DNA of 33,319 nt from a virus (IMGVR_UViG_3300025889_000500:1-33319); one strand, 5' to 3'. Numbered from the stretch's first letter, positions 9,490 through 33,319 are shown. Numbers and translations are program-made. Notes: generated by a model from the sequence alone, not told the origin.

Positions 9490-9490
9490 T

Positions 9491-10111
9491 ATGTTCAAAA
9501 ATAAAAAATACGCAATTATTCGAAAAGCAATACCAAAAGATTTATGTGTTTTTATTTATAATTGTTTTTTAATGCAAAAACAAGTTTATGATACACTTAA
9601 AAAAAATAGATATTTTTCACCTTTTGAAACAATATTAGGTCATTATGAACACGAAGGAGAATTAGTACCTAATACTTATGCTCATTATGGAAATATAATT
9701 ATGGAAACATTAATGTTAAAATGTCAGCCAGTTATGGAAAAAACAACAGGGTTAAAATTATATCCTGCAAACACATATGCAAGACTTTATAAAAAAGGTG
9801 ATGATTTAAGAAGACACAAAGATAGATTTAGTTGTGAAATATCAACAACAATGTTTATTGGTGGTGATCCTTGGTCAATATATTTAGAGCCATCTGGTAA
9901 AGAAGGAATGAAAGGTATTAAAATAGATTTAAAACCAGGAGATATGTTAGTTTATTCTGGTTGCGAATTAGAACATTGGAGAGAAAAGTTTAAAGGAAAA
10001 CAATGTCTTCAAGTGTTTTTACACTATAATAATTCTAAAACTAAGGGGGCTAAAGATAATATATTTGATACTAGACCTCATTTAGGTTTACCTCATTGGT
10101 TTAAAAAATAA
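9491..10111 (+). CDS. 2OG-Fe(II) oxygenase superfamily protein
   Basis: YARLY, RHKDR.SCEIS.T, PGDM.VY.GC..EHWRE, QVFLHY. Confidence 0.75.
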   Translation: MFKNKKYAIIRKAIPKDLCVFIYNCFLMQKQVYDTLKKNRYFSPFETILGHYEHEGELVPNTYAHYGNIIMETLMLKCQPVMEKTTGLKLYPANTYARLYKKGDDLRRHKDRFSCEISTTMFIGGDPWSIYLEPSGKEGMKGIKIDLKPGDMLVYSGCELEHWREKFKGKQCLQVFLHYNNSKTKGAKDNIFDTRPHLGLPHWFKK

Positions 10112-13608: not shown

Positions 13609-14982
13609 ATGGCGATTGATGAGAAAGACATTGAATCTGTAGCACAACCAGATGCTAGTGCTGCTTATCTTGGAAAAGATCCACAAATAGGAGATGCTTT
13701 TGTTAGAACGTCACTTGACAGTTATCAAGTTGAAGATGCTGCAAATGAAAGACTTGCAAAAGAAACTTTAGATTTAAGAGATGAAAATGAAAAGTTAAAA
13801 GTTGAATTAGGTAATTTATCTAAAGTTGTAAATCCAGAAGATGGCAAAGGTAAAAAAACTGATAAAGGTGGCTTTTCAACATTTATATCTTCTGTAGGTG
13901 ATGCACTTACAAGTTTTACTGAAGGCATTGATAAAAAAATGGAAACTGTTTATGATGACAGAGAAAAAAGAACTAGATTTTTACAGGGTCTTAATACAAT
14001 AATATCAGCATCATCTTTTACACCAATAGGACAAGCTAAATCTCCTGTAGGTATGATTGCCGAGGGTCAGAAAAAAGGATTTTTAGAATCAGAAGCAATA
14101 GGAACAAAAAGAAAATCTTTAGATGTAGAACAAACAAAAGCTCAAGCTTCTCTTTTAAAAGCAATGAAAGATGAACCACCTAGAATAAGAGGAACTGTTG
14201 ATGAAGCAATATTAAAATTATATCCAGATTTTCAATCTAGATTTAGAGATAAACAAAAACAATATGGTGCTTTAGATCAAAGATATATTGAATTATATAA
14301 ATTAGCTCAAAAAGGTTTTGAAGCTCCTACTGGTTTAGTTTCAGAATTTTTAACTCCATTTGAAAAAATATTTTCTGAATTAGGTTTATCTGAAAAATTT
14401 AGAAGTTTAGAAGCAAGTGTATCTAAATATGAACCAGGTCAAGATTTATCTGCTGCTGATAAAGTTGCTTTTAAAGATTTATTCTCTGCTGCAACTAAAC
14501 AAGCTATTGTATCTCAAGTAAAAGATTTATATCCAGCTTCTGATAAAGACATTCAAGTATTATTAAGTACAGTAGGTGATATTGGAACTAATCCTAAAGC
14601 TTTACAAAAACTTGTAGCTGTTCAAAAAGCTTTAATTGAAATTAATAATTTAATACCAAATTATGCTAAAGAAGAAGCATTTACAAATAAAAATATAGAG
14701 TTTGAATCTGTTGCGAATGAAAAAGCTGCAGTTGCTTTAGCAGAACAATTAAAAGATAAAGTAACTGATCAAAGTTTAATTGAATTATTTGGAACTAAAG
14801 ATGATGTTAATCCATTTAGAATTATTAATGCTTATTATTATCAAACACTAGAACCTCAATTTAAAGGAACAACAACTGATTATTTTGATACTTATAAAAA
14901 AACACAAGCTGCCCAAGAAAAAACTATAACTGATATTATTGATACCGAAATTAATAATGAATTAATTAATAAACCTAAATAA
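13609..14982 (+). CDS. Putative internal virion (ejection) protein
   Basis: 457 aa, helical; lies between ejection-type genes; SD AGGAGG. Confidence 0.5.
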   Translation: MAIDEKDIESVAQPDASAAYLGKDPQIGDAFVRTSLDSYQVEDAANERLAKETLDLRDENEKLKVELGNLSKVVNPEDGKGKKTDKGGFSTFISSVGDALTSFTEGIDKKMETVYDDREKRTRFLQGLNTIISASSFTPIGQAKSPVGMIAEGQKKGFLESEAIGTKRKSLDVEQTKAQASLLKAMKDEPPRIRGTVDEAILKLYPDFQSRFRDKQKQYGALDQRYIELYKLAQKGFEAPTGLVSEFLTPFEKIFSELGLSEKFRSLEASVSKYEPGQDLSAADKVAFKDLFSAATKQAIVSQVKDLYPASDKDIQVLLSTVGDIGTNPKALQKLVAVQKALIEINNLIPNYAKEEAFTNKNIEFESVANEKAAVALAEQLKDKVTDQSLIELFGTKDDVNPFRIINAYYYQTLEPQFKGTTTDYFDTYKKTQAAQEKTITDIIDTEINNELINKPK

Positions 14983-14988
14983 TGAAAA

Positions 14989-17900
14989 ATGGCAGAACTT
15001 ACCACTGAACAAAAAAATGTTTATAATAAGCTTATCAGTAATGGACTTGATACAAAAACTGCTGAAGGTTTAGTTACTGGAGCTATTAATAAAGATACTT
15101 ATTTATCAGAATTAAAAACTAAACAAAAACCTAAAACTAAAAAAGATATATTAGCAAGTGAAGGTTACGATTACGATTTAATTCAAAATACATCAAAAAA
15201 AATTAAAGGAGATGAAGAACAATATAATAATTTATATTTAGAAGGTGTAGATGAAGCTCTTGCTTATTACATGCCTTCTAAAGAAGAAACATTTAATTTA
15301 TACGGTATAAGAACTAATAAAGAAGCTCCCTCTGATGTAAGATACAGATTAAGTTTTGGGGCTTCTGATGTACAAGGACAAATTTTTGGAGCTAAAAAAT
15401 TATTAGCAGAAGACCTTGTACAAAATCAAGGCGTTGATAAAGCATTAGTCGATAGATATAAAGATAAAATTAAAGTTAAAAATCAAAGAGTAGGTGAAGG
15501 TAATGATGGTTATAATGGTTTAGTTTTTTCTATACCTGAAGAATTAGGAGGCGATGGTTACTTCTATACTTTTAATAGACCAGGCTTTGATATGTCAGAC
15601 TTACAAGGAATGGCTGGCGATGGTATGGTAATAGCTGCAAGTATAGGAGGAGGAACTGTTGGATCAGCGTTTGGTCCTGGAGGAACTATTGTTGGATCAG
15701 GTCTATCAGCAGGAGCTGCTGAATATTATAGATTATCATTAGGAAGAAAGTATGGTCTTTTTGATTATATGGACGAGGAACAATTTGGTGAATACGCTTT
15801 TACTCAAGCAGCAAAAACTGGAGCTTTTGATGCAGCAGCGACTGCAGCATTTTTACCACTAGCAAAAATAATTAAACAACAAGTATTTATGGCAGGTAAC
15901 GAAAGATTATCTGGAGATACTGTTGGTAAATTTTTAAAAAATGGTGGAAGTCTAGATAAAGAAATGACTACAGCAATAAATGAAGCTAGAACAGTTTTAA
16001 AAAACGCTGGAGTTCCTGATGATATTGCAAATGATTATGTTGCAATCAGTGTAGCTAATGCTATACCTGAAAGTGGTATTATTCCTAAAGGTACTAAAGG
16101 AGATAGAATATATAAAAAGATTTTAAATTCAGTAAATGAAAGAGTTAAAAATAAAGAAGTAGAAAATAAATTATTAAAATATACTACAGGAATAGATGAT
16201 ATTAATGTTAAAACAAGCGATAACATTATTAATAATATAGAAAAAAATGTTAAAAATATAAGAGAAGAAGAATTATTTGTTTCTGATAAAGGTGTTAAAC
16301 AAGCTTTTGCTGAAACTCAAAAATTAAAAGATAATTTATATAAAACATATGAAACAAATCAAATTGATAAAATGGGTATTGTATTCAATGAAGTTAATGA
16401 AAGAATTAACTCAAGATTATCTTTATTACAAAATAGAATAAATAGTTCTGCTAAAAAAAATAACTTAACAGTACAGCTTGATGAAAATGGATCAAGAGTA
16501 TTAAAAAATATTTTTAATGAATACGATTTAACTATAAGAAAAAAAATATCATCTACTCCACCTAAAGGTAAAAAAGAATTAGCACAGTGGAAAAAACAAA
16601 AAACTATAAATGAGTTTGTTAATTTTTTAGAAGAAAACGGTGGACAATTTGGATTAGTAAAAGAACAATTAAAAATATTAAAAGGTGGTGTTACAAGTAT
16701 TGATAATTTAAGTTTTAATAATGCTTTAGCTATTAAAAGAGCTTTACAAAATATAGATATTATAGACGCTGTACCTAAAGGTACTAAAGACGCAATAAGA
16801 AATTTAAAAGGAATATTTAAAGACGCTATTGATGACGCTGTTTCAAAAAGTCCTGAAACTGCAAAATTATATAAAGAATACGATAATTTATTATTTAATT
16901 ATAAAAATAGTTTTTTAGATAAACTTGCTACAGAAATAGGATATGGTCCTAACCCACAAGTAATAAGATCAGCTAGATTAACTGGTACTGGTAAAAGTGT
17001 ATTTAATTCAATTACTGCTAATACAAAAGAAGGATTAAATAACGCTGAACGATTAGGAAATTTAATAGATGGTAAATTTTTAAACTTTAGTCAAAATAAT
17101 AAAATTAAAGGAGCACTATATCAACATTATTTTGATAATGTTATGCCACTAGAAGCAGGTGGTAAAGGTGTTATGACTCATGCTAAATTTATAAGTCAAT
17201 ATGGAGATAACTATAGATTGATATTAGGAGAAGATTTATATCAAAAATTTGCAAAAGATACTGGATCAGCGATGAAAATATATGATGATCTTGTAAAACA
17301 AAATGCTAATATACAAAATATTGTATCTAAAGAATTACCATCTTTAAAAATAGATTTATTAGATAAAGGAACTGGTCAAGCTATTGCAGATGAAATATTT
17401 AAAATTGGAAATAAATACGATATTAAACCTTTAATAACAAGATTATCACGTGAGTCAAATCAATTAACTACAGATATTAGAAAATTATATTTACAAAAAA
17501 TGATGAACGCTGTCAAATCACCTTTAGAAGGAACTAACATCAAAGCTTTAAATGGAAATTTATTAGATGATTTTTTAACTTCTAATAAAGGTGTATTAGA
17601 TAATTTATATGGAAAAGAATTTGTTGAATCATATAGAAGTATAGCTAAAGTTTTAAAACTTGTTCAAGCTCCAGATATTGCAGGTAAAGCTGGAGAAGGA
17701 CTTACAGAAGCTGCTAATAGAGCAGGATTATTTATAGATATATTTGCAGGACCATTAAACCATAAAAGATTAATCGTAAATAGATTAGGTCGTATTTACG
17801 ATGGTATGGATTTAGGAGGAGATAGTTTAGATTTATTAGCAGATTATGCTAAATTTACTCAAGCAATTAAAAATCAATTTTTAGCAGGAAACTATCCTAG

Positions 17901-21037: not shown

Positions 21038-21370
21038 ATGGGTAAAGTTTATGTAGTACAAGAAAACCCTAACGTGAATGTACTAGCTGCTGGTCGCTTT
21101 GGTGATTTAATTCCATTGTTACCACCTGGACATCAAATAATGTTATCTCCGGCACCTATTATTAGAATGCTTAAATCTAAATTAAAAGATTTTTGTGATG
21201 ACGACTATCTTTTAGCAATGGGTGATCCTGCTGCTATAGCGATAGCATCAATAATAGCAGGTGACGTTAATAACGGCGTTGTAAATATATTAAAGTGGGA
21301 TAGAGAAAATAGAGCTTACTATAATGTATGTTGTGACGTTTTCAATAGAAAGGAGAAAGCAAATGTCTAA
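21038..21370 (+). CDS. Hypothetical phage protein
   Basis: 110 aa; SD AAGGAG; VYVVQE, DYLL..GDP, LKWDR motifs. Confidence 0.7.
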   Translation: MGKVYVVQENPNVNVLAAGRFGDLIPLLPPGHQIMLSPAPIIRMLKSKLKDFCDDDYLLAMGDPAAIAIASIIAGDVNNGVVNILKWDRENRAYYNVCCDVFNRKEKANV

Positions 21371-21947
21371 AGAAACTTGGATATTTGACGAGGTTGAAAA
21401 ACACTCGAAGAAAGAAAAATTACCAAATGTAGGACTAGAAGTAGTTACTAAAATTGGTAATAAACTTGTAGATAAAAATAAACAACTTGCGATAAAAGAA
21501 GAAGAATTAAAAAATCTTAAACTTGAAATTCGTAAGATACAAGAAGAAGAATTACCAGATGCTATGCGAGCATGCAATGGTATGACTAGATTTGATTTGG
21601 AAGATGGCACACAAATCAAAGTTAAAGATGAAATTTTCTGCTCTATTAAAGCTGATAGAAAATCTGACGCTTTAAAATGGTTAGAAAATGAGGGCCATGC
21701 GGAACTAATTAAACATGATGTTAAAGTTAGTTTCCCTAAGGGCAAATACGATCAAGCTGATAAGTTAATTGAGGTATTATCTAAAAATTTTAAAGATATA
21801 CCTTATGACGAAAAGTCTGACGTACACGCTCAAACGCTAAAAGCTTGGGCAAAAGACCAATATAAATTAGGTAAAACATTACCTGAAGATTTATTTAATG
21901 TCTATGAAGCAAGTATAGCAAAAATAAAACTCGGAAAGGAGAAATAA
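21363..21947 (+). CDS. Conserved phage replication-module protein (coiled-coil N-terminus)
   Basis: ATG at 21363 has SD AAGGAG and is preferred over 21324; A..WL...G...LIK and VH.QTLKAW motifs. Confidence 0.65.
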   Translation: MSKETWIFDEVEKHSKKEKLPNVGLEVVTKIGNKLVDKNKQLAIKEEELKNLKLEIRKIQEEELPDAMRACNGMTRFDLEDGTQIKVKDEIFCSIKADRKSDALKWLENEGHAELIKHDVKVSFPKGKYDQADKLIEVLSKNFKDIPYDEKSDVHAQTLKAWAKDQYKLGKTLPEDLFNVYEASIAKIKLGKEK

Positions 21948-21950
21948 ACT

Positions 21951-22730
21951 ATGAGTGATAAACAAGTAGTAAAGAAGTCAAACTCAGAGGTTGCTTTAGG
22001 CGATTTATCTGCAGATTTGATTATTAAATCTGCTGGTCAAGGTTTACAAAATGTCGGTAATGACGATATTACAATTCCTAGATTAGCGATTGTTCAATCA
22101 GGGTCACCTCAACGTAAGAAAAAAGATGAGAAATATATAGAAGGTGCAGACGAAGGTCATATCTTCAATACTGTTTCTAATGAACTATATACAGATGGAT
22201 TAACTATAATTCCATGTGGATATAAAAAATCTTATGTAGAATGGGTACCTAGAGAAAAAGGCGGTGGATTAGTTGCGGTGCACGATTTTAAACCAGATAG
22301 TGCTAAAATTGATCCTACTACTAAAAAAACAATGTTAGGCGAAAATCAATTAGTTGATACCGCTGAACATTTTGTTTTAGTTAAAAATAAAGATACATTT
22401 GAACCAGCTGTTCTTACAATGACTTCTAGTAATTTATCTGTTTCTAGAAAGTGGAATACACTTTTAAAATTGAAACGAATAAATGTTAAAGGTCAAACTG
22501 TAGAACCACCTTCATTTTTATATGAATTTAAATTATCTACTGTTCAAGCAGAGAATGACTTAGGTAGTTGGCATAAATATAAAATAGAAGAAGTAGGTCA
22601 AATTCAAAGTAAAGATATCTTTAAGCAAGCGCAAGCTTTTGCAGATTCAGTTTCTGATGGTAAAGTAAAAGCATCAGATCCTGTAGATACTGAAGTTGCG
22701 ACAGAAAATGGAGAAGACACACCATTCTAA
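21951..22730 (+). CDS. Putative single-stranded DNA-binding protein
   Basis: IPRL.I.Q..SPQ, YVEW.PR; acidic C-terminal tail ending EDTPF. Confidence 0.6.
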   Translation: MSDKQVVKKSNSEVALGDLSADLIIKSAGQGLQNVGNDDITIPRLAIVQSGSPQRKKKDEKYIEGADEGHIFNTVSNELYTDGLTIIPCGYKKSYVEWVPREKGGGLVAVHDFKPDSAKIDPTTKKTMLGENQLVDTAEHFVLVKNKDTFEPAVLTMTSSNLSVSRKWNTLLKLKRINVKGQTVEPPSFLYEFKLSTVQAENDLGSWHKYKIEEVGQIQSKDIFKQAQAFADSVSDGKVKASDPVDTEVATENGEDTPF

Positions 22731-22731
22731 T

Positions 22732-24234
22732 ATGCATAAAGAACTCTTTGATATATTTCCTGGTTTAAATAGAGCTTATGGCCAATTCTTTATAACAGAA
22801 AGAAAAGGCCCTAAGCTAGATGGCTATGGAAAAACTATTAGGGAGAACTATAATGAAAACTTATGGAAAGAACACCTAGACGGTAAAACTGGTCTAGGTG
22901 TTATTCCTATTAACGAAGACAGCAAATGTAAATGGGGTTGTCTTGACGTAGATGATTATTCAGTCAATATAGAAAAAATTTCAAAACAATTTATTAAAAA
23001 AAATTTAATAGTCTGTAGATCAAAATCAGGCGGAGCACATATATTTATTTTTACTAAAAAATTTGTATCAGCAAAATCAATGATAGAAAAATTAAAAGAA
23101 ATACAACAAGCTTTTGGTTTTGTTAAATATGATTTAAGACCTCAACAAACTAAATTATTAGATGAAAAAGATGTAGGAAGTTGGCTTAATATGCCATACT
23201 TTGGAGGTGATGAAACAGATAGATATGCAGTTTATGATGGTAAAGCTTTAACTTTAAAACATTTTATACAATGGGTAAATAAATTTGCAGTAAATAGTTT
23301 AGAAGAAATTGATTTAAGTTTTATAAAAAAAGTAAATAAATCAAATGAAATATTACCAGGAGGACCGCCTTGTTTACAAGATTTGTTATCTCAAGGTGCT
23401 ATAGGTGAAGGTGGTAGAAATAATGGATTATTTAATATTGGAGTTTATTTAAGAAAAAGATTTCCAGATGAATGGCAAGAAAAGTTAGAAGAATATAATG
23501 ATGAACATATTGATCCACCATTAAAACCTAGAGAATTTACATCAGTATTAAATAGTTTAGATAAAAAAACTTATAATTATAAATGTAAAGATAGTCCAAT
23601 TAATTCAGTATGTAATAAAACTAAATGTTTAACATGTGAATTTGGTATTAGCGATGATGGTACTATGCCTGTTTTAAATAGTATTACTAAAATATTAACT
23701 AAACCACCTCAATATTTTTTAACTATTAATGAAAGAAAAATAGGTCCATTAAATAGTAAACAAATTTATAATTTTTTAGATTTTAAAGAAGTAGTATTTG
23801 AACATTTAGATATGTTACTTCCTAAATTAAATGACAAATTATGGGTTGAATCAGTTAATGATTTAATGTCTAGAGTAATACCAGTTGAAGCTTCTGATGA
23901 TTCTAGTAATGAAGGTAGATTATTAGATTTATTAGAAAGATTTTGTACAGGGTCTACATCATCTACAGAATATGAAGATATACTTAGAGGTAAAGCAATT
24001 ATTCAAGATACACATACACAATTTAGAATAAATGATTTTATGGAATTTTTAGATAGACACAGATTTAAAGAATTTAAACTAAATCAAATAACAGCTTATT
24101 TAAAAGATTTAGGTGCTAATCACGAAGGAAAAAAAGTAAAAGGAAAATATATTAATACTTGGTCTATTAAAAATTTCGAAACTCAAAACGAAGAATTTAA
24201 ACAACCAGAAATAGAAAAGGAGGCTTATGAATAA
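22732..24234 (+). CDS. Archaeo-eukaryotic primase-type protein with PriCT-like domain
   Basis: HL.G..GLG, WGCLDVD (DxD), SKSGGAH, NMPY, PPCL, EGGRNN.LF; start uncertain (22696/22708/22732). Confidence 0.8.
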   Translation: MHKELFDIFPGLNRAYGQFFITERKGPKLDGYGKTIRENYNENLWKEHLDGKTGLGVIPINEDSKCKWGCLDVDDYSVNIEKISKQFIKKNLIVCRSKSGGAHIFIFTKKFVSAKSMIEKLKEIQQAFGFVKYDLRPQQTKLLDEKDVGSWLNMPYFGGDETDRYAVYDGKALTLKHFIQWVNKFAVNSLEEIDLSFIKKVNKSNEILPGGPPCLQDLLSQGAIGEGGRNNGLFNIGVYLRKRFPDEWQEKLEEYNDEHIDPPLKPREFTSVLNSLDKKTYNYKCKDSPINSVCNKTKCLTCEFGISDDGTMPVLNSITKILTKPPQYFLTINERKIGPLNSKQIYNFLDFKEVVFEHLDMLLPKLNDKLWVESVNDLMSRVIPVEASDDSSNEGRLLDLLERFCTGSTSSTEYEDILRGKAIIQDTHTQFRINDFMEFLDRHRFKEFKLNQITAYLKDLGANHEGKKVKGKYINTWSIKNFETQNEEFKQPEIEKEAYE

Positions 24235-24439
24235 AGAAAGAGCAATTAACATTTTATTAGAATATGCAATAGAAAGTGCTGAAAAAATTAAATTAAGACA
24301 AGAAGTTGGATTTACTGAAAAAGTAAGTGATGATCTAACTGCAGCAATTTTATTTTTACAACAAGATAGAGATAAAAATAAGGTAGATGCTAAAGTAGAA
24401 ATAAAAGGAGTTCAATTTAATATTAGAAAAGGAGTATAA
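24227..24439 (+). CDS. Hypothetical protein
   Basis: 70 aa; SD AAGGAGG; coupled to both neighbours. Confidence 0.65.
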   Translation: MNKERAINILLEYAIESAEKIKLRQEVGFTEKVSDDLTAAILFLQQDRDKNKVDAKVEIKGVQFNIRKGV

Positions 24440-25242
24440 TGTTATTATTTTTTGATACAGAAACTAATGGATTATGGAGGAGAGATTTAAATCCAGATCA
24501 TGAAGATCAACCTAGACTTGTTAGTTTAGCTTTTCAAATTACAGATGATAATGAAAAGATTGTTGCTCAATACTCAACTAGAATAGAACCTAAAAATAAT
24601 GAATATCCAGAATTTACTATTCCTAAAGAAGCTTCTGATGTTAATGGTATAACAACTAAAGAAGCACAAGATACAGGTATATCAGCTAAATATGCAATGT
24701 CAACTTTAAGTTATTTTATGAGTAAGTGTCATACTATGGTTGCTCACAATTTAGCATTTGATTTACAAATAATTGAGCGTGAATTTAATTTATTAAATTT
24801 TATGTATAAATTACCTAACAACTTACACTGTACAATGATGACTGCTAAAAATGAAATGAAATTAGAAAGTAAGTATGATGATTATAAATTTCCTAAACTA
24901 GAAGAATGTTTTAGTCATTTTTTTCATAGAGGAGTACAAAACTACCATGATGCGTTATTAGATGTACAATTATGTAGAGAGCTTTATTTTCATTTAAGAA
25001 GAAAAGGAGTATTACTACAAACTCATCAAGGTATTCCTAAAGAATTATTAAAAAGAATTGATGGTGAAAAATATAAAAACTTAGTTAAATTTTTACACGA
25101 TATAGATTCAACTAAATTAAATGATTGGGAAAATAATTTTTGTCAATCTTTAATAGAAAAAATGGATAAATTTGATGAACATATTTTAGTATCTACTAAA
25201 CAATATGATGTTCTTAAAAAAATCTATGCCAAGTGTAGTTAA
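24439..25242 (+). CDS. DEDDh 3'-5' exonuclease (DnaQ-like) with C-terminal extension
   Basis: FFDTETNG, AHNLAFD, CTM, HDALLDV. Confidence 0.88.
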   Translation: MLLFFDTETNGLWRRDLNPDHEDQPRLVSLAFQITDDNEKIVAQYSTRIEPKNNEYPEFTIPKEASDVNGITTKEAQDTGISAKYAMSTLSYFMSKCHTMVAHNLAFDLQIIEREFNLLNFMYKLPNNLHCTMMTAKNEMKLESKYDDYKFPKLEECFSHFFHRGVQNYHDALLDVQLCRELYFHLRRKGVLLQTHQGIPKELLKRIDGEKYKNLVKFLHDIDSTKLNDWENNFCQSLIEKMDKFDEHILVSTKQYDVLKKIYAKCS

Positions 25243-25417
25243 ATTTTGTTATAAATGTAAAAATATAGCACACGTTATATATGATAAAAAATACTATTGT
25301 GCAACATGCGGATTAAATGAGCAATTGTCAAACGATAAAAATATTCGGAAGCCCGGGTACAGGGAAAACAACAACGTTGTTAGATATACTAGAGAAAAAA
25401 ATATCAGAAGGATATAA
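25226..25417 (+). CDS. Small zinc-ribbon protein
   Basis: CYKC...CATC; bridges the exonuclease-UvrD gap but overlaps the helicase gene by about 100 nt. Confidence 0.5.
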   Translation: MPSVVKFCYKCKNIAHVIYDKKYYCATCGLNEQLSNDKNIRKPGYRENNNVVRYTREKNIRRI

Positions 25418-26831
25418 TCCTTTACGAATTGGATATTTTTCTTTTACACGTAGAGCAATAAGAGAAGCACGAAGACGTGTCATTAAAAAATTTGAAATAG
25501 ATGAAGACAATCTAGAATATTTTAGAACTATACATAGTCTATGTTATAGGACTTTAAATATAAATAGTGGTCAAGTATTTAAAGGTGAACGTGTAAAAGA
25601 ATTTAGTGAAATTGCTAGAGTAGAACTATCTGGAGTATCTGATGAAGATACTTCAGGATTAGCAATAGGAAGTAAAAAAGGTGATTTACTTTTATTTTGT
25701 GATGAAGTTACAAGATCAAGTGAAAGAAATTTAAAAGATGTATGGAGAGAATTAGAGTGTGATCACTCATTTGAAGAACAAGTTTATTTTTCTACTGCAC
25801 TAGCTAATTTTAAAAAAGAAAAAAAACTTTTAGACTTTACTGATATGTTAGATGTTTTTTTATTAGAAAAAAATATTCCACATTTAGATATTATATTTAT
25901 TGATGAAGCTCAAGATTTAACAACTAAACAATGGAAAGTAATTGATAAATTATCAGAACCCTGTAAGTTTAGATATATAGCAGGTGACGATGATCAAGCT
26001 ATCTATAAATGGGCAGGTGCTGATGTTAAAAAGTTTTTAGATATAGAGGGTAAAGTAGAAGTATTACCAATCAGTTATAGACTTCCTAAAACTATTCATA
26101 AATTAGCTTGCGATATATCTAATAAAATTAGTTTAAGACAAGCGAAAGAATGGGGATGTAGAGAGGACCTTGGATCAGTAAATGAAATTACCACAGTTGA
26201 AGATGTAGATATGTCAAAAGGTGAATGGTTAATTTTAGCTAGATCAGGTTATCAATTAAATAGAGCAGAAGCTTATTGTAAAAGAATGGGTTGGTTTTAT
26301 GAAAAAGGTTATCAAGAATTTAAAACTAATAAATATGTTATTGCAATAAGAGCTTGGATAAAATTAAATAAAAATGAAACAATAAATTTTGATGAATTAA
26401 AAAAATTATATCAATGTTTACAAAGTAAAACACATATTAAAAGAGGTTTTAAAAAATTAGAAGGTATAAATCAAGATATTGATTTTGATTTAAATTATTT
26501 AAAAGAAAATTGTGGATTACTTGCAGAAGGAGATTGGCAAAATGTAATACATGGATTAGACCCTGAAGATATTTTAATGTTTGAATCATTAGAAAAATCA
26601 GGAGATTTATTTAAAAATAAAGCAAGAATTAGATTATCAACAATACATGGAATTAAAGGAGGAGAAAGTGATAATGTAGTTGTTATATCGGATATTTCTT
26701 ACAGGACATGGAGAAAATTAAATGTAGAACCAGATGATGAACATAGAGTTTTTTATGTTGCTGTAACCAGAGCACGCAAAAATTTGTTTATACTGCAGCC
26801 TGAAACGAAGTATAGTTATGAAATTAAATAA
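25317..26831 (+). CDS. UvrD/Rep-family (SF1) helicase
   Basis: GSPGTGKT, TIHS, DEAQD, GDDDQAIY, SYR, STIHGIKGGE, YVAVTRA. Confidence 0.93.
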   Translation: MSNCQTIKIFGSPGTGKTTTLLDILEKKISEGYNPLRIGYFSFTRRAIREARRRVIKKFEIDEDNLEYFRTIHSLCYRTLNINSGQVFKGERVKEFSEIARVELSGVSDEDTSGLAIGSKKGDLLLFCDEVTRSSERNLKDVWRELECDHSFEEQVYFSTALANFKKEKKLLDFTDMLDVFLLEKNIPHLDIIFIDEAQDLTTKQWKVIDKLSEPCKFRYIAGDDDQAIYKWAGADVKKFLDIEGKVEVLPISYRLPKTIHKLACDISNKISLRQAKEWGCREDLGSVNEITTVEDVDMSKGEWLILARSGYQLNRAEAYCKRMGWFYEKGYQEFKTNKYVIAIRAWIKLNKNETINFDELKKLYQCLQSKTHIKRGFKKLEGINQDIDFDLNYLKENCGLLAEGDWQNVIHGLDPEDILMFESLEKSGDLFKNKARIRLSTIHGIKGGESDNVVVISDISYRTWRKLNVEPDDEHRVFYVAVTRARKNLFILQPETKYSYEIK

Positions 26832-26843
26832 AGAAAAAGAATT

Positions 26844-27902
26844 ATGAAAGCATTAGGAACATATATATTTGCAGGAGGTTTTACTTTAGGTGTAAGAAAA
26901 CATTTTGACGTACAAGCACATTTTGAAATGAAACCTGGATTATATAAAAAAACTTTTCAAGCTAATTTTCCAAATATTCCAGTTTATGAAGGTGAAGATG
27001 AATGGCCTAGAAAAAAATATAAAGGTAAAATAGATTTTGTATATTGTAATCCACCATGTGCACCTTGGTCTAATTTAGGAAGCACTCAAAAAGGCGCACA
27101 AGCTTGGCGTAACGACCCTCGTATAGCTTGTTGGAGAAATAGTTTTAATCTATTAAAAGAATTAGAACCTAAAGCAATTGCTATTGAATCAGTACCTAGA
27201 GTTTATTCAATTAATGGTGGAAGACCTATGATTACTGAATTAAGTAAAGAAGCTATTGATTTAGGATATCAAGTAACTCATTTATTAATAGATGGTGGAT
27301 TTACTGGTTTAAATCATAGTAGAAAAAGATTTTTCTTTATAGCAACTAAATATAATTTAAATCCTAATATATTAAACTTTCAGCCATTACCTACAGCTGG
27401 TGAGGTATTAAATCAATTTAAAGAAGAACACGGATCAGACGTAGGTCATTTAATGAAATTAGGTGAAAATGAAAAACCTTATCTTAAACATTGTAAACAA
27501 GGAGAAAGTTTAAGAGTAACTTGGGAAAGATATAATCCACCTGAAACTTGGGTTAGAGGAGGAATGCGTGGAGGAGTTAAAGGTAGACCTCAGTTTATGA
27601 AATGGAGATTAAAAAACGATGCTCATATACCAGTTATTGCAGGAGGATTTTATATTCACCCTACAGAAGATAGATTATTTGGTCATAAAGAATTAGCTTA
27701 TATGGCAGGGTATCCTGTAGATTATAAATGGGAAGGTCCAGCATCTACCATAGGATCACAAATTGCAAGAGGAGTTATGCCACCTGTAGCTGAATATGTA
27801 GCAAGAATAGTTAAAAATAGTATAAGAGATAAAAATAAAAAAGAAGAAGAATTACAAATTGTAGATTTTAGAAAAGAACCTGAACAAGCAAGTTTAATAT
27901 GA
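26844..27902 (+). CDS. Atypical DNA cytosine-C5 methyltransferase-family protein
   Basis: Motif IV NPPC..WS, VI IESV, VIII HSRKR, IX HP.EDR...E...GYP; motifs I (YIFAGG) and X (QIARGV) are divergent. Confidence 0.82.
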   Translation: MKALGTYIFAGGFTLGVRKHFDVQAHFEMKPGLYKKTFQANFPNIPVYEGEDEWPRKKYKGKIDFVYCNPPCAPWSNLGSTQKGAQAWRNDPRIACWRNSFNLLKELEPKAIAIESVPRVYSINGGRPMITELSKEAIDLGYQVTHLLIDGGFTGLNHSRKRFFFIATKYNLNPNILNFQPLPTAGEVLNQFKEEHGSDVGHLMKLGENEKPYLKHCKQGESLRVTWERYNPPETWVRGGMRGGVKGRPQFMKWRLKNDAHIPVIAGGFYIHPTEDRLFGHKELAYMAGYPVDYKWEGPASTIGSQIARGVMPPVAEYVARIVKNSIRDKNKKEEELQIVDFRKEPEQASLI

Positions 27903-28333
27903 CGTATTCAGGAATATTTGATGATATGGATAAAGATACTTTGATAAAAGATATTGATGCTTTTCATAAAAAATTTGGGTTTGAAAAGAACGAAAAAGTT
28001 GGTATACCTGATAATAACGAATTAGTAAATTTTAGAACTTCTTTTTTAATGGAAGAATTAGCAGAGTACACTCAAGCAATTACTAAAAAAGATGCTGCAG
28101 GTGCTTTAGATGCTCTTGTTGATATAGTTTATATAGCTTTAGGTACAGCTTGGTTATTTAATCTTCCATTTGAAAAAGCGTGGAATGAAGTACAAAAAGC
28201 AAATATGAGTAAAATAAGAGCTAAAAGTAAATCTAAAAAAAGAGGTACAGCTTTTGATGTTATTAAACCAAAAAATTGGAAAGCTCCTGATATTGAACAA
28301 ATAATTTATGAAGAAAGAGAAAAAGAAAAATGA
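27899..28333 (+). CDS. MazG-like / all-alpha NTP pyrophosphohydrolase
   Basis: FH.KFG, EELAE, DALVD..Y, V..ANMSK, KP.NW..P. Confidence 0.85.
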   Translation: MTYSGIFDDMDKDTLIKDIDAFHKKFGFEKNEKVGIPDNNELVNFRTSFLMEELAEYTQAITKKDAAGALDALVDIVYIALGTAWLFNLPFEKAWNEVQKANMSKIRAKSKSKKRGTAFDVIKPKNWKAPDIEQIIYEEREKEK

Positions 28334-29361
28334 AAATATTAGTTACAGGATTTAATGCTTTAGCAATTGGTACTGCTAAATCACCATTGAATATTGCAAC
28401 ATCAGCTAGAATACTACCTGAAGTTTTAAGAGAACTTGGACACGAAGTAACTCAAAAAGCAATTATTCCTGGAGAAGATGTATCAATGTATGATAAAGTT
28501 TTTGTATTTGTATTTGGTCCTAATAGTCTTTCAGCTAGATACTGGTATGGTGCGGCATACACCATAATTAAAAGACCTGATGCTATAATCTCCATTGACG
28601 ATTGGCAAACTAAAGATTCAGTAAGTGGTTTTGGTACGTTTAGCCGAGGTCATTGGAGAATATGGAAAAAATTATCTAAAGCAGGTAATCCAGTAGGTAA
28701 AATATATTGGGACGAGGCTCAACCTTATAAGAAAGAAATTGAAGATTTAGTTGATACATTTGCATTTGAAAAATGGCCACATAAACTTTTAATACCAGCA
28801 TATGACGGTGGTAACTACGATGAACTTGGATTAAAAGCAAATGAAATAGTTAATTGGGATCCATCACCTTACACAAATACTTATTTAAAAAATCCGGAAG
28901 AAGGATTATTTGAAAGTCAACCATTACCAGTTGAGAATAAAGAAAAAGCTTGGATACTAGCAAGTTTAGTAAGTAAACAAGGTTGGTTAAAAAAACAAAC
29001 TTTTAATTGGCCAATTAAAACTTTTGGTAATGTAAAAGAAAAACAAACTAGATTAAAAGAACACGAACTATATCAAGAATATAGAAAAGTTTGGGGTATT
29101 ATAAGTCCTCCTCATTATCACACTATGAAAGGTAGTGGTTGGTGGAGAGTAAGATATAAAATGGCTTATGATGCTAAAAGTATTATATTAGCACATCCGG
29201 AAGAAGCTAAAATATTAGGAATAAATATTGATCATAATATTATAGAAAAAGGTAGTAATTTTGAATTAAACGAAATAATTAGTAGTCAGAACGAAATACT
29301 TAAAAATAAATTTTGGACAAAAGAAAGAACGAAAGAATTTTTTAAATGTATGCTAGAATAA
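28330..29361 (+). CDS. GT-B fold protein resembling T4 DNA beta-glucosyltransferase
   Basis: MKI start, LGHEV, DVSMYDKVFV, IDDW, KTFGNVKEKQ and RVRY; 343 aa; colinear with T4 BGT as recalled from memory. Confidence 0.6.
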   Translation: MKILVTGFNALAIGTAKSPLNIATSARILPEVLRELGHEVTQKAIIPGEDVSMYDKVFVFVFGPNSLSARYWYGAAYTIIKRPDAIISIDDWQTKDSVSGFGTFSRGHWRIWKKLSKAGNPVGKIYWDEAQPYKKEIEDLVDTFAFEKWPHKLLIPAYDGGNYDELGLKANEIVNWDPSPYTNTYLKNPEEGLFESQPLPVENKEKAWILASLVSKQGWLKKQTFNWPIKTFGNVKEKQTRLKEHELYQEYRKVWGIISPPHYHTMKGSGWWRVRYKMAYDAKSIILAHPEEAKILGINIDHNIIEKGSNFELNEIISSQNEILKNKFWTKERTKEFFKCMLE

Positions 29362-29918
29362 TAATATTTGAAGGACCAGATGGAGTAGGTAAAACTACTT
29401 TAATAAATCATTTTAAAAAAGAATTTAATAATTCATATTATATGCATTTAAGAGTGCATAAAGATATGAAGTTATGGCATACAGCTAGTATGCGATTAGC
29501 TATTAAAAAGAAAAATCAAGGGAAGTTAGTTTTATTAGATAGACATTGGCCTAGTGAACAATGTTATTCTTATATCTATCGTGATGGTCCTAGTTATAAT
29601 GCTAAATTTATTTATGATAAATTAAAATCAGAAGGTACATTATATGTATGGTGTTTACCAGAAAATATTGAAAAAGTAAAAGCTAATCATAGAATTAATA
29701 GAGAAGAAAGACATGAAGAATATTATGATATTGATAAAGTAGTAGAACTATATGATAATTACTGGCATGGCTTTGAAGATAGACAAAATACTTTATGGGA
29801 ATTAAGTCCATTAAAATTAAGAAATGATTTTATTAGGTACGATATGTTTCAAGAAGGTGATAATTTAGAAAAAGTAACAGAGAAAATAATGGATAGGAGC
29901 TTTGCATTAGGAATATGA
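29346..29918 (+). CDS. dNMP (thymidylate-kinase-like) kinase
   Basis: P-loop EGPDGVGKT; LLDRHWPSE..Y. Confidence 0.8.
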   Translation: MYARIIIFEGPDGVGKTTLINHFKKEFNNSYYMHLRVHKDMKLWHTASMRLAIKKKNQGKLVLLDRHWPSEQCYSYIYRDGPSYNAKFIYDKLKSEGTLYVWCLPENIEKVKANHRINREERHEEYYDIDKVVELYDNYWHGFEDRQNTLWELSPLKLRNDFIRYDMFQEGDNLEKVTEKIMDRSFALGI

Positions 29919-30736
29919 GTGCTTTAAATTTATATTATAAGAAAAAAATATGGGAAATTTATCATAAACCTGAGTTTGTAACTAAACCTAGAGGTTTAAA
30001 AATAGCAGAAGTATTAAATGATAGTTGGATAATTGATATGGATAATCCAATTATTTTAAATGAAGCTAGAAAATTAAGTTACGATTTTATGTTTGGTGAA
30101 GCAGCATGGATGCTTAGTGGTAAAAACGATGTAGCTACAGTATCTAAATATGCTGGTGCTATAAAAAGATTTAGCGATAATGGAATAACTTTTTTTGGAG
30201 CATATGGTCCTAAGATCATTGATCAATTACCTTATGTATTAGATATTTTACAAAATGATAAAGATACAAGACAAGCAGTATTAAATATATGGAGAGAAAA
30301 TCCTAGATCAAGTAAAGATATTCCTTGTACTTTATCTTTACAATTCTTTTTAAGATATGCTAGTGATACATTATGGCTTCATACAACTGCTACAATGAGA
30401 AGTAACGATATTTATTTAGGAACACCTTATGATAGTTTTAATTTTAGTGCTATATCTTTTTATTTAGCATTATTATTAAATGAAAGAGGTATTAATTGTA
30501 AATTAGGTAAATTAAATATACAAGCAGGTAGTCGTCATTTATACGAAACTGATTTTAAAAAAGTAGATAAAATTTTATTAAGTGAAGATATACCTGATTT
30601 TCCATATTTTTCTTTTAATGATTTAATACCTTTATATCACGGTATATCTGATAGATTTATTCCTAATTTAGAACGTGCAGCTAATAGTGGATATAAAGTT
30701 AAATATAAAGTTTTAAAAGACGCTAATGGCATATAG
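29915..30736 (+). CDS. Thymidylate synthase homologue, probable dCMP hydroxymethylase-type
   Basis: EAAW, GAYGP, TRQAV, DIPCT (C138), MRSND...GTPYD (D173), HLYE. Confidence 0.78.
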   Translation: MSALNLYYKKKIWEIYHKPEFVTKPRGLKIAEVLNDSWIIDMDNPIILNEARKLSYDFMFGEAAWMLSGKNDVATVSKYAGAIKRFSDNGITFFGAYGPKIIDQLPYVLDILQNDKDTRQAVLNIWRENPRSSKDIPCTLSLQFFLRYASDTLWLHTTATMRSNDIYLGTPYDSFNFSAISFYLALLLNERGINCKLGKLNIQAGSRHLYETDFKKVDKILLSEDIPDFPYFSFNDLIPLYHGISDRFIPNLERAANSGYKVKYKVLKDANGI

Positions 30737-31214
30737 ACTTCCTAAAGATTGGTATTTTTTAAAGATGGCACATTTAGTTTCAGAACGTGCTACTTGTACA
30801 AGACGTAAAGTAGGTTGTATTTTAATTAATTCTAAAAATCACGTAGTAGCTACAGGTTATAATGGAGTATCATCTGGTCAAGAACATTGTATAGATAACC
30901 CTTGTAAAGGAGCAGAATTAAAATCAGGACAAGGTTTAGAATTATGTGAAGCAATACACGCTGAACAAAATGCATTATTACAATGTAAAGATGTCTACGA
31001 TATAGATACTGTTTTTTGTACAGTAAGTCCTTGCATTCATTGTTTGAAATTATTATTGAATACTTCTACTAAACATATTGTATTTATGGAAAAGTATGTA
31101 GACGCAGATCCATTAGGAGAATACTGGATAAAAAATACATTAGGTAGAGGTGGTTCATGGACTTATATAAATAAGAAAGTTATACTAGATAAATGTTCAA
31201 GTTCTCTGAATTAG
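30726..31214 (+). CDS. dCMP deaminase
   Basis: RATC.RRKVG, TGYNG, HAEQNA, SPCIHC. Confidence 0.92.
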   Translation: MAYRLPKDWYFLKMAHLVSERATCTRRKVGCILINSKNHVVATGYNGVSSGQEHCIDNPCKGAELKSGQGLELCEAIHAEQNALLQCKDVYDIDTVFCTVSPCIHCLKLLLNTSTKHIVFMEKYVDADPLGEYWIKNTLGRGGSWTYINKKVILDKCSSSLN

Positions 31215-33034
31215 AAAAGTCTAGTATCATTGCTATTGATACAGAGACACACGATCCTCGTTTGAAAACTCATGGACCAGGTGGATTTAGAAAAGATGGT
31301 AAGTTAGTTGGAATATCTATAGCAACTGACTCTGGTTATAATGAATATTTTCCAATTGGTCATCAAGCTGGTGGTAATTTAGATAATAATAAAGTTATTG
31401 ATTTTTTAGATAAAATGCTAAAACTCAATAAAACTTACGTTTTTGCTAATGCTATTTATGACATGGAGTGGCTTTATTCACACGATAATAGACTGGCCTT
31501 TACTCGTAGTCATAGAATTTACGATGTACAAGGTATAGAGCATTTAATAGATGAAAATAAATTAAAATATTCATTAGATAGTTTAGCCAAAAGATATTTA
31601 AAAAAATCTAAATATGAAGTTGAATTAGGAAAAGCAGTTTTAGCAGAGTTTGGTAAACGTGCTAAAGTAAAAGAAAGCTTATGGAGATTACACGCAAACT
31701 TTGTATCTGAGTATGCTAAAGAAGACGCATTACTTACTTTACAAATATTTCAAAAACAACAAGAAATAATTGATAAGCAAGAAATAAGAAACATAGTTGA
31801 ATTTGAATCAAGACTTATACCATTACTATTTGAAATTCGTAAGCGAGGAGTAAGAATTAATATTAATAAAGCAGAAGAACTGTATGATATGCTTGAAAAA
31901 AAACAAGTTGAAGTGCAAGAAAGACTAAATAAACTTGGAGGAGATGAAGTTAATGTATGGGCAAACGCTTCATTAAAACAAGCATATGATAAAAATAAGA
32001 TTAATTATAATTACACCGCAAAAGGTATGGCGTCTTTCACTGCAAGTTGGCTTGAAAGTCAAGTGGATGATGTCTCTAAAAGTATCTTAGCAGTTAGAAA
32101 GTTAGACAAGATAAGAAATACATTTATTAAAAATATGATTCTAGAGAAAGCTGTAAGTGGTAGGATACATTGTAATTTTAATCCACATGGAACTGTTACA
32201 GGTAGATTTAGCTCTAACTATCCTAATCTACAACAAGTACCTGCAAAAGACCCTGAACTTGGTCCAATGATCAGAAGTTTATTTATACCAGAAGAAGAAT
32301 CAGAATGGGTTGTATCAGATTATTCTCAACAAGAACCTAGAGTATTAGTCCACTATGCTAGTTTAAAAAATATGAAAACTGCTTTAGCTGCTAGAGATCA
32401 ATTTAATAATAACGATGATACTGACTTTCATCAAATGGTAGCTGATATGGCAAATATACCTAGAAAACAAGCTAAAACTATTAACTTAGGTTTATTTTAT
32501 GGAATGGGTAATAAAAAATTAGCTGCAGAATTAGGACTAGATATGGATGCTGCATATGATCTTTTTAATAAGTATCATTCTAAAGTACCGTTTGTAAAAG
32601 AATTATCTAAACAAGTATCACATGTAGCTAGTACAAGAGGTTATATAAAAACTTTATTAGGACGTAAAAGAAGGTTTGATTTATGGGAACCTAGAGATAG
32701 TTGGGGAGAAAAAGCTGTATCATTATCAGAAGCTTATGAAAAATATCCAAAACAAGAATTAAAAAGAGCAATGACTCATACAGGATTAAACGCTTTAATA
32801 CAAGGAAGCTCTGCGGATATTACAAAAGCAGCAATGTTAAAAATATGGGATAGTGGTTTAATGGACGAGATTGATATTAAATTAACTATACACGATGAAT
32901 TAGATTTTTCTATACCTCATACTAAACAAAAATGTTTAGACGAAGCTATACAAATGATGAAAAATGCTGTAAAACTTAACGTACCATTAAAGGTAGACGT
33001 TGAGAAAGGAGATAGCTGGGGTACAGCAAAATAA
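31193..33034 (+). CDS. polA: Family A DNA polymerase with 3'-5' exonuclease domain
   Basis: IDTET, TGRFSS..PNLQQ, DYSQQEPR (motif A), AKTINLGLFYG (motif B), IHDEL (motif C). Confidence 0.96.
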   Translation: MFKFSELEKSSIIAIDTETHDPRLKTHGPGGFRKDGKLVGISIATDSGYNEYFPIGHQAGGNLDNNKVIDFLDKMLKLNKTYVFANAIYDMEWLYSHDNRLAFTRSHRIYDVQGIEHLIDENKLKYSLDSLAKRYLKKSKYEVELGKAVLAEFGKRAKVKESLWRLHANFVSEYAKEDALLTLQIFQKQQEIIDKQEIRNIVEFESRLIPLLFEIRKRGVRININKAEELYDMLEKKQVEVQERLNKLGGDEVNVWANASLKQAYDKNKINYNYTAKGMASFTASWLESQVDDVSKSILAVRKLDKIRNTFIKNMILEKAVSGRIHCNFNPHGTVTGRFSSNYPNLQQVPAKDPELGPMIRSLFIPEEESEWVVSDYSQQEPRVLVHYASLKNMKTALAARDQFNNNDDTDFHQMVADMANIPRKQAKTINLGLFYGMGNKKLAAELGLDMDAAYDLFNKYHSKVPFVKELSKQVSHVASTRGYIKTLLGRKRRFDLWEPRDSWGEKAVSLSEAYEKYPKQELKRAMTHTGLNALIQGSSADITKAAMLKIWDSGLMDEIDIKLTIHDELDFSIPHTKQKCLDEAIQMMKNAVKLNVPLKVDVEKGDSWGTAK

Positions 33035-33319
33035 ATGAATATTGGTTTTTTAGGATTAGGTAAACTAGGATTACCTGTAGCTCTTGCAATTGAAGATAAA
33101 GGACATAAAGTTATTGGTACAGATATTAATGAAACAACTTTAAGAAATATAAGATTTAAAACACTGAATTATAAAGAAAAAGGTGCTAATGATCTACTAA
33201 AAAATTCTAAATTAGAATTAAAAAATATTAGCGAAATAGTATCTGAATCTGATATAATATTTGTTCCAATTCAAACTCCTCACGAAGAAAAGTATGAAGG
33301 TATAACTAGAATACCAGAT
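33035..33319 (+). CDS. UDP-glucose/GDP-mannose dehydrogenase family, N-terminal part (truncated by window end)
   Basis: Hand translation MNIGFLGLGKLGLPVALAIEDKGHKVIGTDIN...E.G...SDIIFVPIQTP; Rossmann GxGxxG, GxD and TP motifs; starts 1 nt after the polA stop; not in the ORF track. Confidence 0.85.
   Translation, partial: MNIGFLGLGKLGLPVALAIEDKGHKVIGTDINETTLRNIRFKTLNYKEKGANDLLKNSKLELKNISEIVSESDIIFVPIQTPHEEKYEGITRIPD

Follow-up and report, generated by a model that had tools for sequence, protein, structure and literature searches.

A predicted glycosyl-hydroxymethylcytosine cassette with a remodelled methylase-fold protein in an HTVC023P-type phage

The viral stretch IMGVR_UViG_3300025889_000500:1-33319, whose full length of 33,319 nucleotides is called the window here, ends in a cassette of genes predicted to modify cytosine, and the question is which base these genes would make and by which route. 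Eight open reading frames (ORFs) on the + strand span position 26844 to the window end, with gaps of -4, -4, -16, -4, -11, -22 and 0 nt. The reading that we lean towards, by a modest margin over doubt, is that cytosine would be converted to 5-hydroxymethylcytosine (hmC) before replication, that an acidic sugar, probably glucuronate, would be added on the DNA, and that a methylase-fold protein would modify the leftover cytosine with a group other than methyl. The genes are as follows.

26844..27902, + strand: C5-cytosine methyltransferase-fold protein (the methylase-like protein), 352 aa; Pfam PF00145, E 5.5e-27
27899..28333, + strand: MazG/PRA-PH-type NTP pyrophosphohydrolase, 144 aa; PF01503, 4.5e-13; phrog_671
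28330..29361, + strand: predicted GT-B glycosyltransferase (GT) resembling beta-glucosyltransferase (BGT), 343 aa; no Pfam family; phrog_14998, which has no assigned function
29346..29918, + strand: thymidylate-kinase-like P-loop kinase, 190 aa; PF02223, 4e-7 (P-loop only); phrog_761, E 1.8e-15
29915..30736, + strand: thymidylate-synthase (TS) homologue, 273 aa; PF00303, 1.4e-16
30726..31214, + strand: dCMP deaminase family protein, 162 aa; PF00383, 9.8e-21; HAE at 78, PCxxC at 102
31193..33034, + strand: family A DNA polymerase with 3'-5' exonuclease (PolA), 613 aa; PF00476, 3.4e-72, and PF01612
33035..33319, + strand: NDP-sugar 6-dehydrogenase (UDP-glucose/GDP-mannose family), first 95 aa, ending at the window edge; PF03721, 9e-15

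A preliminary description of this DNA had presented the eight consecutive, overlapping or abutting genes as a compact operon. The ORFs indeed lie in this order with gaps of -22 to 0 nt, and Pfam and PHROGs agree with the labels given to seven of them, all but the 343-aa protein. The operon itself has wider limits than described: the + strand run to which the cassette belongs begins at 21038 (with primase, exonuclease and UvrD genes) and goes on past the window end, where a full 420-aa dehydrogenase is followed by NadE in 21 of 24 close relatives; genes beyond the window end were read from relatives. A scan for promoters and terminators gave nothing above shuffles.

The TS homologue has as its best match in the Protein Data Bank (PDB) the CMP 5-hydroxymethylase MilA (E 1.2e-20). 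Its diagnostic residues are D135, C138, D165 and D173, which correspond to positions 143, 146, 169 and 177 of E. coli ThyA. According to the rules given in PMC13326640, Asp177 directs the enzyme to dCMP, an acidic residue at 143 goes with non-methyl products, and D169N goes with 5-hydroxycytosine. The catalytic Cys (C138), the Asp at 177 (D173) and the acidic residue at 143 (D135) together form the signature of a dCMP hydroxymethylase, and hmC is the likely product predicted for this enzyme. In an alignment with reference enzymes, the same D/D/D combination at positions 143, 169 and 177 is found in T4 gp42 and in the gp42-like enzyme of Aeromonas phage 25, which also carries the GT family, and the signature agrees with that of MilA as well; RB69 gp48 and Rgz1 have E/N/D, the 5-methylcytosine (5mC) makers Xp12 and PaMx74 have N/D/D, and a phage ThyA has L/D/N.

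Related loci were collected with two scans for the GT, the second represented by the best 80 of 172 confirmed stretches. They fall into a close clade (33 loci), a sister clade (16 loci, in which the GT is about 50% identical), a third group (24 loci, 26-31%) and four further loci at 30-32%; many are close strains, and the counts below are not counts of independent events. In the related IMG/VR loci, gene order is retained as far as each locus reaches, except that the dCMP deaminase is missing in L045 and L046. Of 67 TS genes parsed in these GT loci, 66 are D/D/D and the 67th is D/D/D after alignment; one truncated gene could not be read.

Three other classes of TS were considered for the window enzyme and set aside: the 5-hydroxy-dCMP synthases of the RB69 gp48 class (D165 is the Asp, with no D169N), the dCMP methylases of the Xp12/PaMx74 class (Asp and not Asn at ThyA 143, with two reference enzymes compared), and ThyA or the dUMP hydroxymethylases (D173, where Asn would be found at 177). 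The same residues, D173, D165 and D135, speak against the idea that the TS homologue makes 5mC, 5-hydroxycytosine or 5-hydroxymethyluracil (hmU) and that the T4 analogy is wrong, as does the GT, which requires a hydroxyl acceptor. What lends this idea some colour is that the enzyme and T4 gp42 lie far apart in the tree, that other HTVC023P-type phages carry a thymidine-type TS with aG/PT-PPlase1 (PMC9599517), and that some deaminases of this kind act on modified dC nucleotides (bioRxiv 10.1101/2024.12.05.627091). We regard it as very improbable, and the dCMP-type TS of the preliminary description is borne out by the hydroxymethylase signature, with D173 excluding the dUMP class. A second thymidylate synthase was also looked for and rejected: G001 and G004 each carry a single TS, and ThyX is absent from all five relatives' genomes. 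With one TS only and no ThyX, these phages would depend on their hosts for dTMP.

The GT is the gene that would give the hydroxymethyl group its sugar. Its structure model (pLDDT 87, pTM 0.86) retrieved T4 BGT at ranks 1-5 in Foldseek with TM 0.56-0.60, against 0.33-0.50 for other GT-B enzymes among the matches listed, and VIA-align again placed T4 BGT at rank 1 (Z 16.8, rmsd 3.6, 277 residues aligned), the next match having Z 15.4. A link at the level of sequence, to T4 BGT or to any PDB entry, was sought and none was found. The 343-aa protein is thus predicted to have a GT-B fold closest to T4 BGT, and the label BGT-like holds through the two structural searches, the sequence match to BGT being insignificant. 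Asp91, the candidate catalytic base in the role of D100 of T4 BGT, follows the third strand and is kept in every alignment row that covers it; Arg273 and Arg275 are invariant in alignment A1. Because the TS homologue is D/D/D and the 343-aa protein is predicted to be a GT-B enzyme closest to T4 BGT, glycosyl-hmC is the likely modified base, and we consider it probable that the GT acts on hmC DNA.

Homologues of the GT family were found in 42 phage records. In four of six neighbourhoods examined (Aeromonas 25, FBB1, DSL-LC01 and C48C1), the GT gene has a UDP-galactopyranose mutase gene, or one resembling it, as a neighbour; a GT homologue lies in the arabinosylation cluster of Rgz1, and in BlueNGold one stands among GT, MazG and methylase-like genes. 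Since mutase or arabinose genes adjoin the GT in these neighbourhoods, it appears that the family often pairs with a phage-made sugar donor. In a seventh neighbourhood, that of a Manatee Spring record, TS, MazG and deaminase genes lie about 10 kb from the GT, and no sugar gene is annotated. Residue 27 of the GT is Arg or Lys in 23 of the 23 covered dehydrogenase loci and Asn in 12 of 12 sister loci; as a determinant of the donor it was rejected as weak, with five other positions splitting identically in what is a single contrast between clades.

Two further observations concern this family. The cultured phage C48C1 (L033:8586-12033) has a TET/JBP gene, a member of the GT family and a UDP-galactopyranose-mutase-like gene in succession, a candidate cluster for galactofuranosyl-hmC or -hmU. 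Gordonia phage BlueNGold (L028:10001-16948) and DSL-LC01 (L030:9992-16326) each have two GT paralogues and, in addition, a still more divergent methylase-like gene, in which motif I is degenerate and the motif X site is Lys; these phages are cultured candidates for base analysis.

Which sugar the GT would transfer is suggested by the gene after PolA. The dehydrogenase gene is found there in 24/24 close loci that reach past PolA and in 0/13 loci of the sister clade. The window has 95 aa of it only, and its full-length relatives of 420 aa (in L024 at 14703-15968) have the three domains of an NDP-sugar dehydrogenase and pass TIGR03026, and in 24/24 the motifs with the catalytic Lys, Asn and Cys are intact. 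Its matches to UDP-glucose and GDP-mannose dehydrogenases are nearly equal (E 1e-25 and 9e-27), and the best equivalog matches are of the UDP-glucose dehydrogenase (UGD) types, below cut-off. The sister clade has instead an epimerase-family gene upstream, in all 12 loci with room for it, and the one in L038 is a UDP-glucuronate decarboxylase (UDP-xylose synthase; E 2e-87). Because UDP-glucuronate is what this enzyme of the sister clade uses up, it is also the simplest product to assume for the dehydrogenase. With a dehydrogenase in every close locus and a UDP-xylose synthase in its stead in the sister clade, the added sugar would more probably be a uronic acid than glucose, a preference that we hold with some reserve. 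The preliminary description had pointed to the phage's own sugar-donor enzyme and allowed that the final base might not be glucosyl-hmC; the dehydrogenase in 24/24 close loci makes plain glucose less likely. For comparison, clusters of the TET route have been reported to make hexuronic-acid methylcytosine (mC), a TS accompanies about 28% of the GT-B contigs (both bioRxiv 10.1101/2023.12.21.572611), and a phage UGD has been proposed to act in SP-15 DNA modification (PMC5977210).

The contrast between the two clades also bears on a simpler pathway in the style of T4, in which the GT would add a neutral sugar (glucose, or xylose made through a host decarboxylase), the dehydrogenase and NadE would be auxiliary, and the methylase-like protein would be an ordinary 5mC methylase dependent on S-adenosylmethionine (SAM). 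That the best structural match of the GT is the glucose-specific T4 BGT agrees with it, as does the position of the dehydrogenase outside the methylase-to-deaminase block and beside NadE; the pairing of dehydrogenase and UDP-xylose synthase with different clades does not. We consider this pathway rather unlikely, also for the motifs of the methylase-like protein described below.

Two neighbouring genes should be mentioned here. An NAD+ synthetase gene, nadE, follows the dehydrogenase in L024 (15965-16729) and in 20 other close loci (21/24); NadE may restore the NAD spent in the oxidation, which takes two NAD, or act against defences that deplete NAD. NadE was considered as a uronamide-forming enzyme and dismissed, as it passes the ordinary nadE cut-off and is absent from 3/24 loci; it is treated as accessory. 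A glycosyltransferase-like gene at 2433-3251 of the window (phrog_1574, weak phrog_34859) lies in the virion module, is also found in HTVC023P, and is an alternative consumer of the nucleotide sugar.

The methylase-like protein is the odd member of the cassette. It is modelled as a C5-methyltransferase fold (pLDDT 94) and scores below the TIGR00675 cut-off (58 vs 101 bits). Motifs were counted in the best 120 of 155 homologues, where covered. The catalytic residues are kept, with C72 and E115 in 118/118 and both R160 and R162 in 120/120, and so is the ribose-binding E28 (116/117). At the first Gly of motif I, by contrast with the canon, there is Phe or Tyr in 117/117 (Phe9 in the window; HMMER alternatively reads a two-residue deletion here), motif VI has Ser in 118/118 (ESV with Ser116, for canonical ENV), and the site of the motif X Asn (309) has Arg in 59, Lys in 29, Gln in 27 and Gly in one homologue, with Asn in 0/116 and Arg309 in the window. 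Motif IV is NPPC, its Asn being found in 118/118 (Asn69 in the window). Measured against the canonical Dcm/HhaI enzymes, the protein therefore has the PC, E and RxR elements and lacks the motif I FxGxG, the motif VI ENV and the motif X Asn. The odd methyltransferase of the preliminary description is thus odd in motifs I, VI and X around an intact catalytic centre; that it has an Arg where CmoX does, and that the family includes fusions to glycosyltransferases (both described below), are additional to what had been noted. For an ordinary SAM-dependent 5mC methylase, as the T4-style pathway would have it, Glu28 is in its favour and so is the aromatic residue that most methylase homologues have at the motif I Phe site; the Phe or Tyr for the motif I glycine in 117/117 and the missing Asn at 309 are against it.

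The best PDB match of the methylase family profile is 8YF3, the SpCmoX of Synechococcus phage S-B43 (E 2.9e-27). In the alignment, at 22% identity, R309 falls on R350, C72 on C98, E28 on E47 and F9 on G27, and the R309 site corresponds to Asn304 of HhaI. In SpCmoX, R350 binds the carboxylate of carboxy-SAM, and the SPPC motif served as a criterion in the search for CmoX (PMC12783734). One may therefore ask whether the phage makes two marks, a glycosyl-hmC through TS and GT and a 5-carboxymethylcytosine, or a similar acidic adduct, through a CmoX-like enzyme that uses host carboxy-SAM. The match to 8YF3, the alignment of Arg and Cys, and the Arg or Lys at the site in 88/116 homologues are what this explanation has for it. 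On the other hand, the identity is 22%, the motif is NPPC and not SPPC, the glycine loop is intact in CmoX, and Gln occupies the site in 27/116. CmoA and CmoY are usual, though not necessary, neighbours of CmoX; here CmoA is absent from 5/5 genomes, CmoA and CmoY have no match among the 182 sequences searched, and the class I methyltransferases that neighbour the family gave no match to CmoA. Given the NPPC in motif IV and the missing CmoA and CmoY, the methylase-like protein is not a CmoX by the criteria of PMC12783734, and we think the two-mark explanation unlikely.

The company that the family keeps also bears on its role. The gene is present in 30/30 close loci and 13/13 sister loci with room upstream, and over these loci its median identity is 81%, vs 63% for the TS. 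In the third group, GT, kinase and TS are present and the methylase-like gene is found in 0/24 loci within the stretch covered. A scan with the methylase profile, of which the best 80 of 105 were kept, gave 29 distant loci (two pairs are near-duplicates). A TS lies in the stretch in 25 of the 29, with the acidic-143/Asp-177 pattern in 23 of those 25 (two unparsed); a kinase is present in 20 loci, MazG in 18 and the GT family in 4. The methylase-like protein is fused to a BGT-like GT in L057, L058, L059 and L136, and to a class I methyltransferase in L155, L158 and L159. An AGT-like GT is adjacent in L138 and L139 (weak Pfam matches) and fused in L147 (by eye), and a radical SAM protein is the partner in L148 and L149. 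Since a TS stands beside it in 25/29 distant loci and the partner varies, the methylase-like protein appears to be tied to hmC synthesis and not to one sugar; and because a hydroxyl is what the fusion partners would act on, we favour the view that it puts a group other than methyl on the cytosines left over. C5-methyltransferases are known to add a hydroxymethyl group from formaldehyde, without SAM.

The family goes with a TS of the hmC type whether its partner is BGT-like, AGT-like, a class I methyltransferase or a radical SAM protein, and this could mean that the methylase-fold protein acts on hmC itself. Covalent attack at C6 would expel water or formaldehyde and allow a nucleophile to couple, giving a new C5-CH2-X adduct, or the protein would only flip the base for the transferase. 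Thiol coupling to 5hmC is known. C5-methyltransferases strip the hydroxymethyl group from 5hmC without SAM (PMC11347137). Such an activity would, however, put the protein in competition with the GT for a single hydroxyl, and no gene that supplies a nucleophile is conserved in the close clade; we give this explanation little credence. A TET route was rejected too, with PF12851 in none of nine genomes and the control C48C1 positive. CpG depletion was considered as a footprint of methylation and discarded: the ratio in the window is 0.47 but at codon junctions 1.29, so that the former reflects codon use (AGA 298 vs CGN 57), and in most of the distant members of the family the ratio is close to 1 or higher. 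No cultured phage was found with a methylase homologue above 28% identity; the versions of DSL-LC01 and BlueNGold are more distant and also altered.

Several loci show other arrangements around the family. In many of the long forms, with or without a fused transferase, a small helical domain without a Pfam match follows the methylase domain (L058:8399-11011, L057, L147, L140, L143, L154). By eye or Pfam, the family stands beside a kinase, a nucleotidyltransferase and a BGT-like GT in L157 (9572-12422), an aGPT-pyrophosphorylase-like gene in L160 (5868-6947), and a HAD hydrolase with a transaldolase in L156 (9793-11908). In L143 (9610-12258), a phage ORF of 883 aa, in which an ADP-ribosyltransferase domain (PF03496) is recognised, lies between the methylase-like and MazG genes.

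We propose the following route. The TS homologue would very probably convert dCMP to hmdCMP. The kinase and the host nucleoside diphosphate kinase (NDK) would then raise hmdCMP to hmdCTP, while MazG may lower dCTP and/or dUTP and the deaminase may feed dUMP to host thymidylate synthesis. PolA would incorporate hmdCTP. On the DNA, the BGT-fold enzyme would transfer a sugar from the NDP-uronic acid made by the dehydrogenase to the hydroxymethyl group, probably in beta linkage. Finally, the methylase-fold protein would form a Cys72-C6 adduct on DNA cytosines. For this last step our leading guess, a tentative one, is SAM-free hydroxymethylation of leftover cytosine, which would give the GT its acceptor; plain methylation is about as likely as any single alternative, and both carboxymethylation (or the use of another SAM analogue) and hmC activation or scaffolding seem less likely still. 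The purpose is likely protection from host nucleases. A wider possibility, which we regard as doubtful, is that the methylase-fold family is a new class of cytosine-modifying enzymes that has abandoned SAM methylation and hands a hydroxymethylated or otherwise derivatised cytosine to a fused or neighbouring transferase, the phage carrying glucuronosyl-hmC by joined pre- and post-replicative routes.

A number of points weigh against this proposal. All of its support is homology and the activities are predicted, in loci that are many of them close strains. The GT is without sequence similarity to BGT, and other GT-B enzymes are close behind in structure (Z 15.4 vs 16.8). The scores of the dehydrogenase do not assign it to UDP-glucose or to GDP-mannose; placed after PolA, it could serve the GT-like gene at 2433-3251 or host surface sugars, and its product could become xylose via a host enzyme. 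The methylase-like protein and the GT are not obligate partners, as shown by the 0/24 loci of the third group and the 4/29 distant methylase loci with the GT family. The D/D/D TS genes of AXL3 and HTVC200P stand without an annotated GT nearby. Finally, MazG may act on dCTP and/or dUTP, so that full replacement of cytosine is plausible rather than established.

The MazG-like protein is closest in the PDB to DR2231 (E 2.6e-5), and its match to T4 gp56 is insignificant (E 0.013). DR2231 has dUTPase activity. With DR2231 the closest and gp56 without a significant match, a dCTPase role is one that we infer, and the protein is best called a predicted dCTPase and/or dUTPase. The kinase resembles RB69 gp45 (blastp E 6e-6, in a small database), which is listed apart from the gp1-type dNMP kinases in PMC13326640; it is a predicted hmdCMP kinase, and its equivalence to T4 gp1 is conjectural. 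PolA is 40-44% identical to those of DSL-LC04, 023Pt_psg01 and HTVC023P, and is of the HTVC023P type. The preliminary description had seen the family A polymerase as what sets this pathway apart. We do not retain this point: dCMP deaminase, TS, PRA-PH and PolA have been reported to co-localise in modified-cytosine contigs (bioRxiv 10.1101/2024.12.05.627091; PMC8670742), so that a T4-like pathway built around PolA is of a known kind.

Compared with the glucosyl-hmC system of T4 (gp42, gp1, gp56, cd, beta-GT), the cassette shares the hydroxymethylase signature, the BGT-type GT-B fold and the roles of kinase, pyrophosphatase and deaminase. It differs in being one compact cassette in a group of PolA phages of 52-64 kb, in the RB69 gp45-like kinase, the DR2231-like pyrophosphatase and the GT without sequence similarity to BGT, and in having its own NDP-sugar dehydrogenase and an extra methylase-fold gene. 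The equivalence to T4, function for function, that had been proposed for it goes beyond the evidence: the hydroxymethylase signature and the BGT-like fold are supported, and a gp56 role for MazG and a gp1 role for the kinase are conjectural. With SpCmoX (PDB 8YF3; PMC12783734) the methylase-like protein shares the fold, the catalytic Cys, the ribose-binding Glu and the Arg for the motif X Asn; it is set apart by the low identity, the NPPC and ESV motifs, the Phe in the glycine loop and the lack of CmoA or CmoY in the sequences searched, and its family travels with a TS hydroxymethylase and fuses to glycosyltransferases. The clusters of C5-methyltransferase, TET/5mYOX and GT (bioRxiv 10.1101/2023.12.21.572611) likewise bring together a methyltransferase, a BGT-like GT and a sugar-donor enzyme, with hexuronic-acid mC among their reported products; no TET was found here (0/9 genomes), and because hmC would come from the TS homologue, the methyltransferase has no obvious place in that known scheme. 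The glycosylated 5-hydroxycytosine pathways of RB69, DLP3 and RL38JI (PMC13326640) share the kinase-GT-TS triad and a phage-made donor, and the Rgz1 cluster contains a GT homologue; their TS is D169N, whereas the window TS keeps the Asp. A literature search, with subscription journals and supplements outside it, found no description of the cassette or of a methylase-GT fusion.

If the proposal is true, an abundant freshwater group of HTVC023P-type phages protects its DNA by hmC that bears an acidic sugar, made via a nucleotide-level route, in contrast to the hexuronic-acid mC that is reported through the TET route (bioRxiv 10.1101/2023.12.21.572611). The larger prize would be the methylase-like family, which numbers over 120 proteins and accompanies hydroxymethylase genes in phages of very different kinds, its catalytic site intact and its cofactor pocket remodelled. 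SAM-free cytosine chemistry is known as a side reaction in the test tube, and carboxymethylation has been found in nature recently; a natural enzyme of yet another kind would bring a new DNA base, or a new way of making one, and possibly a tool for labelling or sequencing.

The phage that carries the cassette is of the HTVC023P type by its shared replication and virion gene set: 19 of the 43 window ORFs of at least 90 aa have a match in Pelagibacter phage HTVC023P (30-78% identity), and SNF2 helicase, primase, UvrD and PolA are among them. Within the cassette, PolA alone has such a match. Upstream lies the following region, all genes of which except the exonuclease have HTVC023P homologues.

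21324..26831, + strand: replication backbone, with Pam3 gp33/gp34-like genes, AEP primase, exonuclease and UvrD helicase

Since two small genes fill the interval between UvrD and PolA in HTVC023P, the six-gene block appears to be an insertion in an HTVC023P-type backbone. The preliminary description had taken the phage for a small podovirus-like one. The HTVC023P-type gene set agrees with this, the group being assigned to Podoviridae (PMC9599517); its size needs correction, related records being 52-64 kb. It had also assumed a marine setting, which gives way to freshwater metagenomes as the best-matching public runs, where contigs at 88% likeness or above cover 30/30 bins in 3/3 runs; in public RNA runs only 5-7% of words matched. 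In the HTVC023P-type pelagiphages (PMC9599517), several clades have genes for TS and aG/PT-PPlase1 near the polymerase. Hypermodification genes are thus already known in this group with another composition, the reported partner of that TS being of the thymidine type; HTVC023P itself is without the cassette.

Two cultured phages, HTVC200P (L088:4902-5720) and AXL3 (L087:3611-7645), have a D/D/D TS with no GT annotated nearby, and they are candidate isolates for hmC or O-methyl-hmC; AXL3 also has a class I methyltransferase like those joined to the methylase-like protein in L155 and L158. At 7752-10111 of the window, four small genes stand in a row behind those that resemble tail-fibre genes. 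HTVC023P has counterparts of three of them, at 59-78% identity, and its annotation calls two of these counterparts 2OG-Fe(II) oxygenase-like and ferrochelatase-like; being far more HTVC023P-like than the replication genes, they suggest recent exchange. Carbamoylation of hmC is a known phage modification. In a close relative, the tail region of G001 has, far from the cassette, a NolO-like carbamoyltransferase gene amid 2OG-Fe(II) oxygenase genes (L167:16627-18069, minus orientation).

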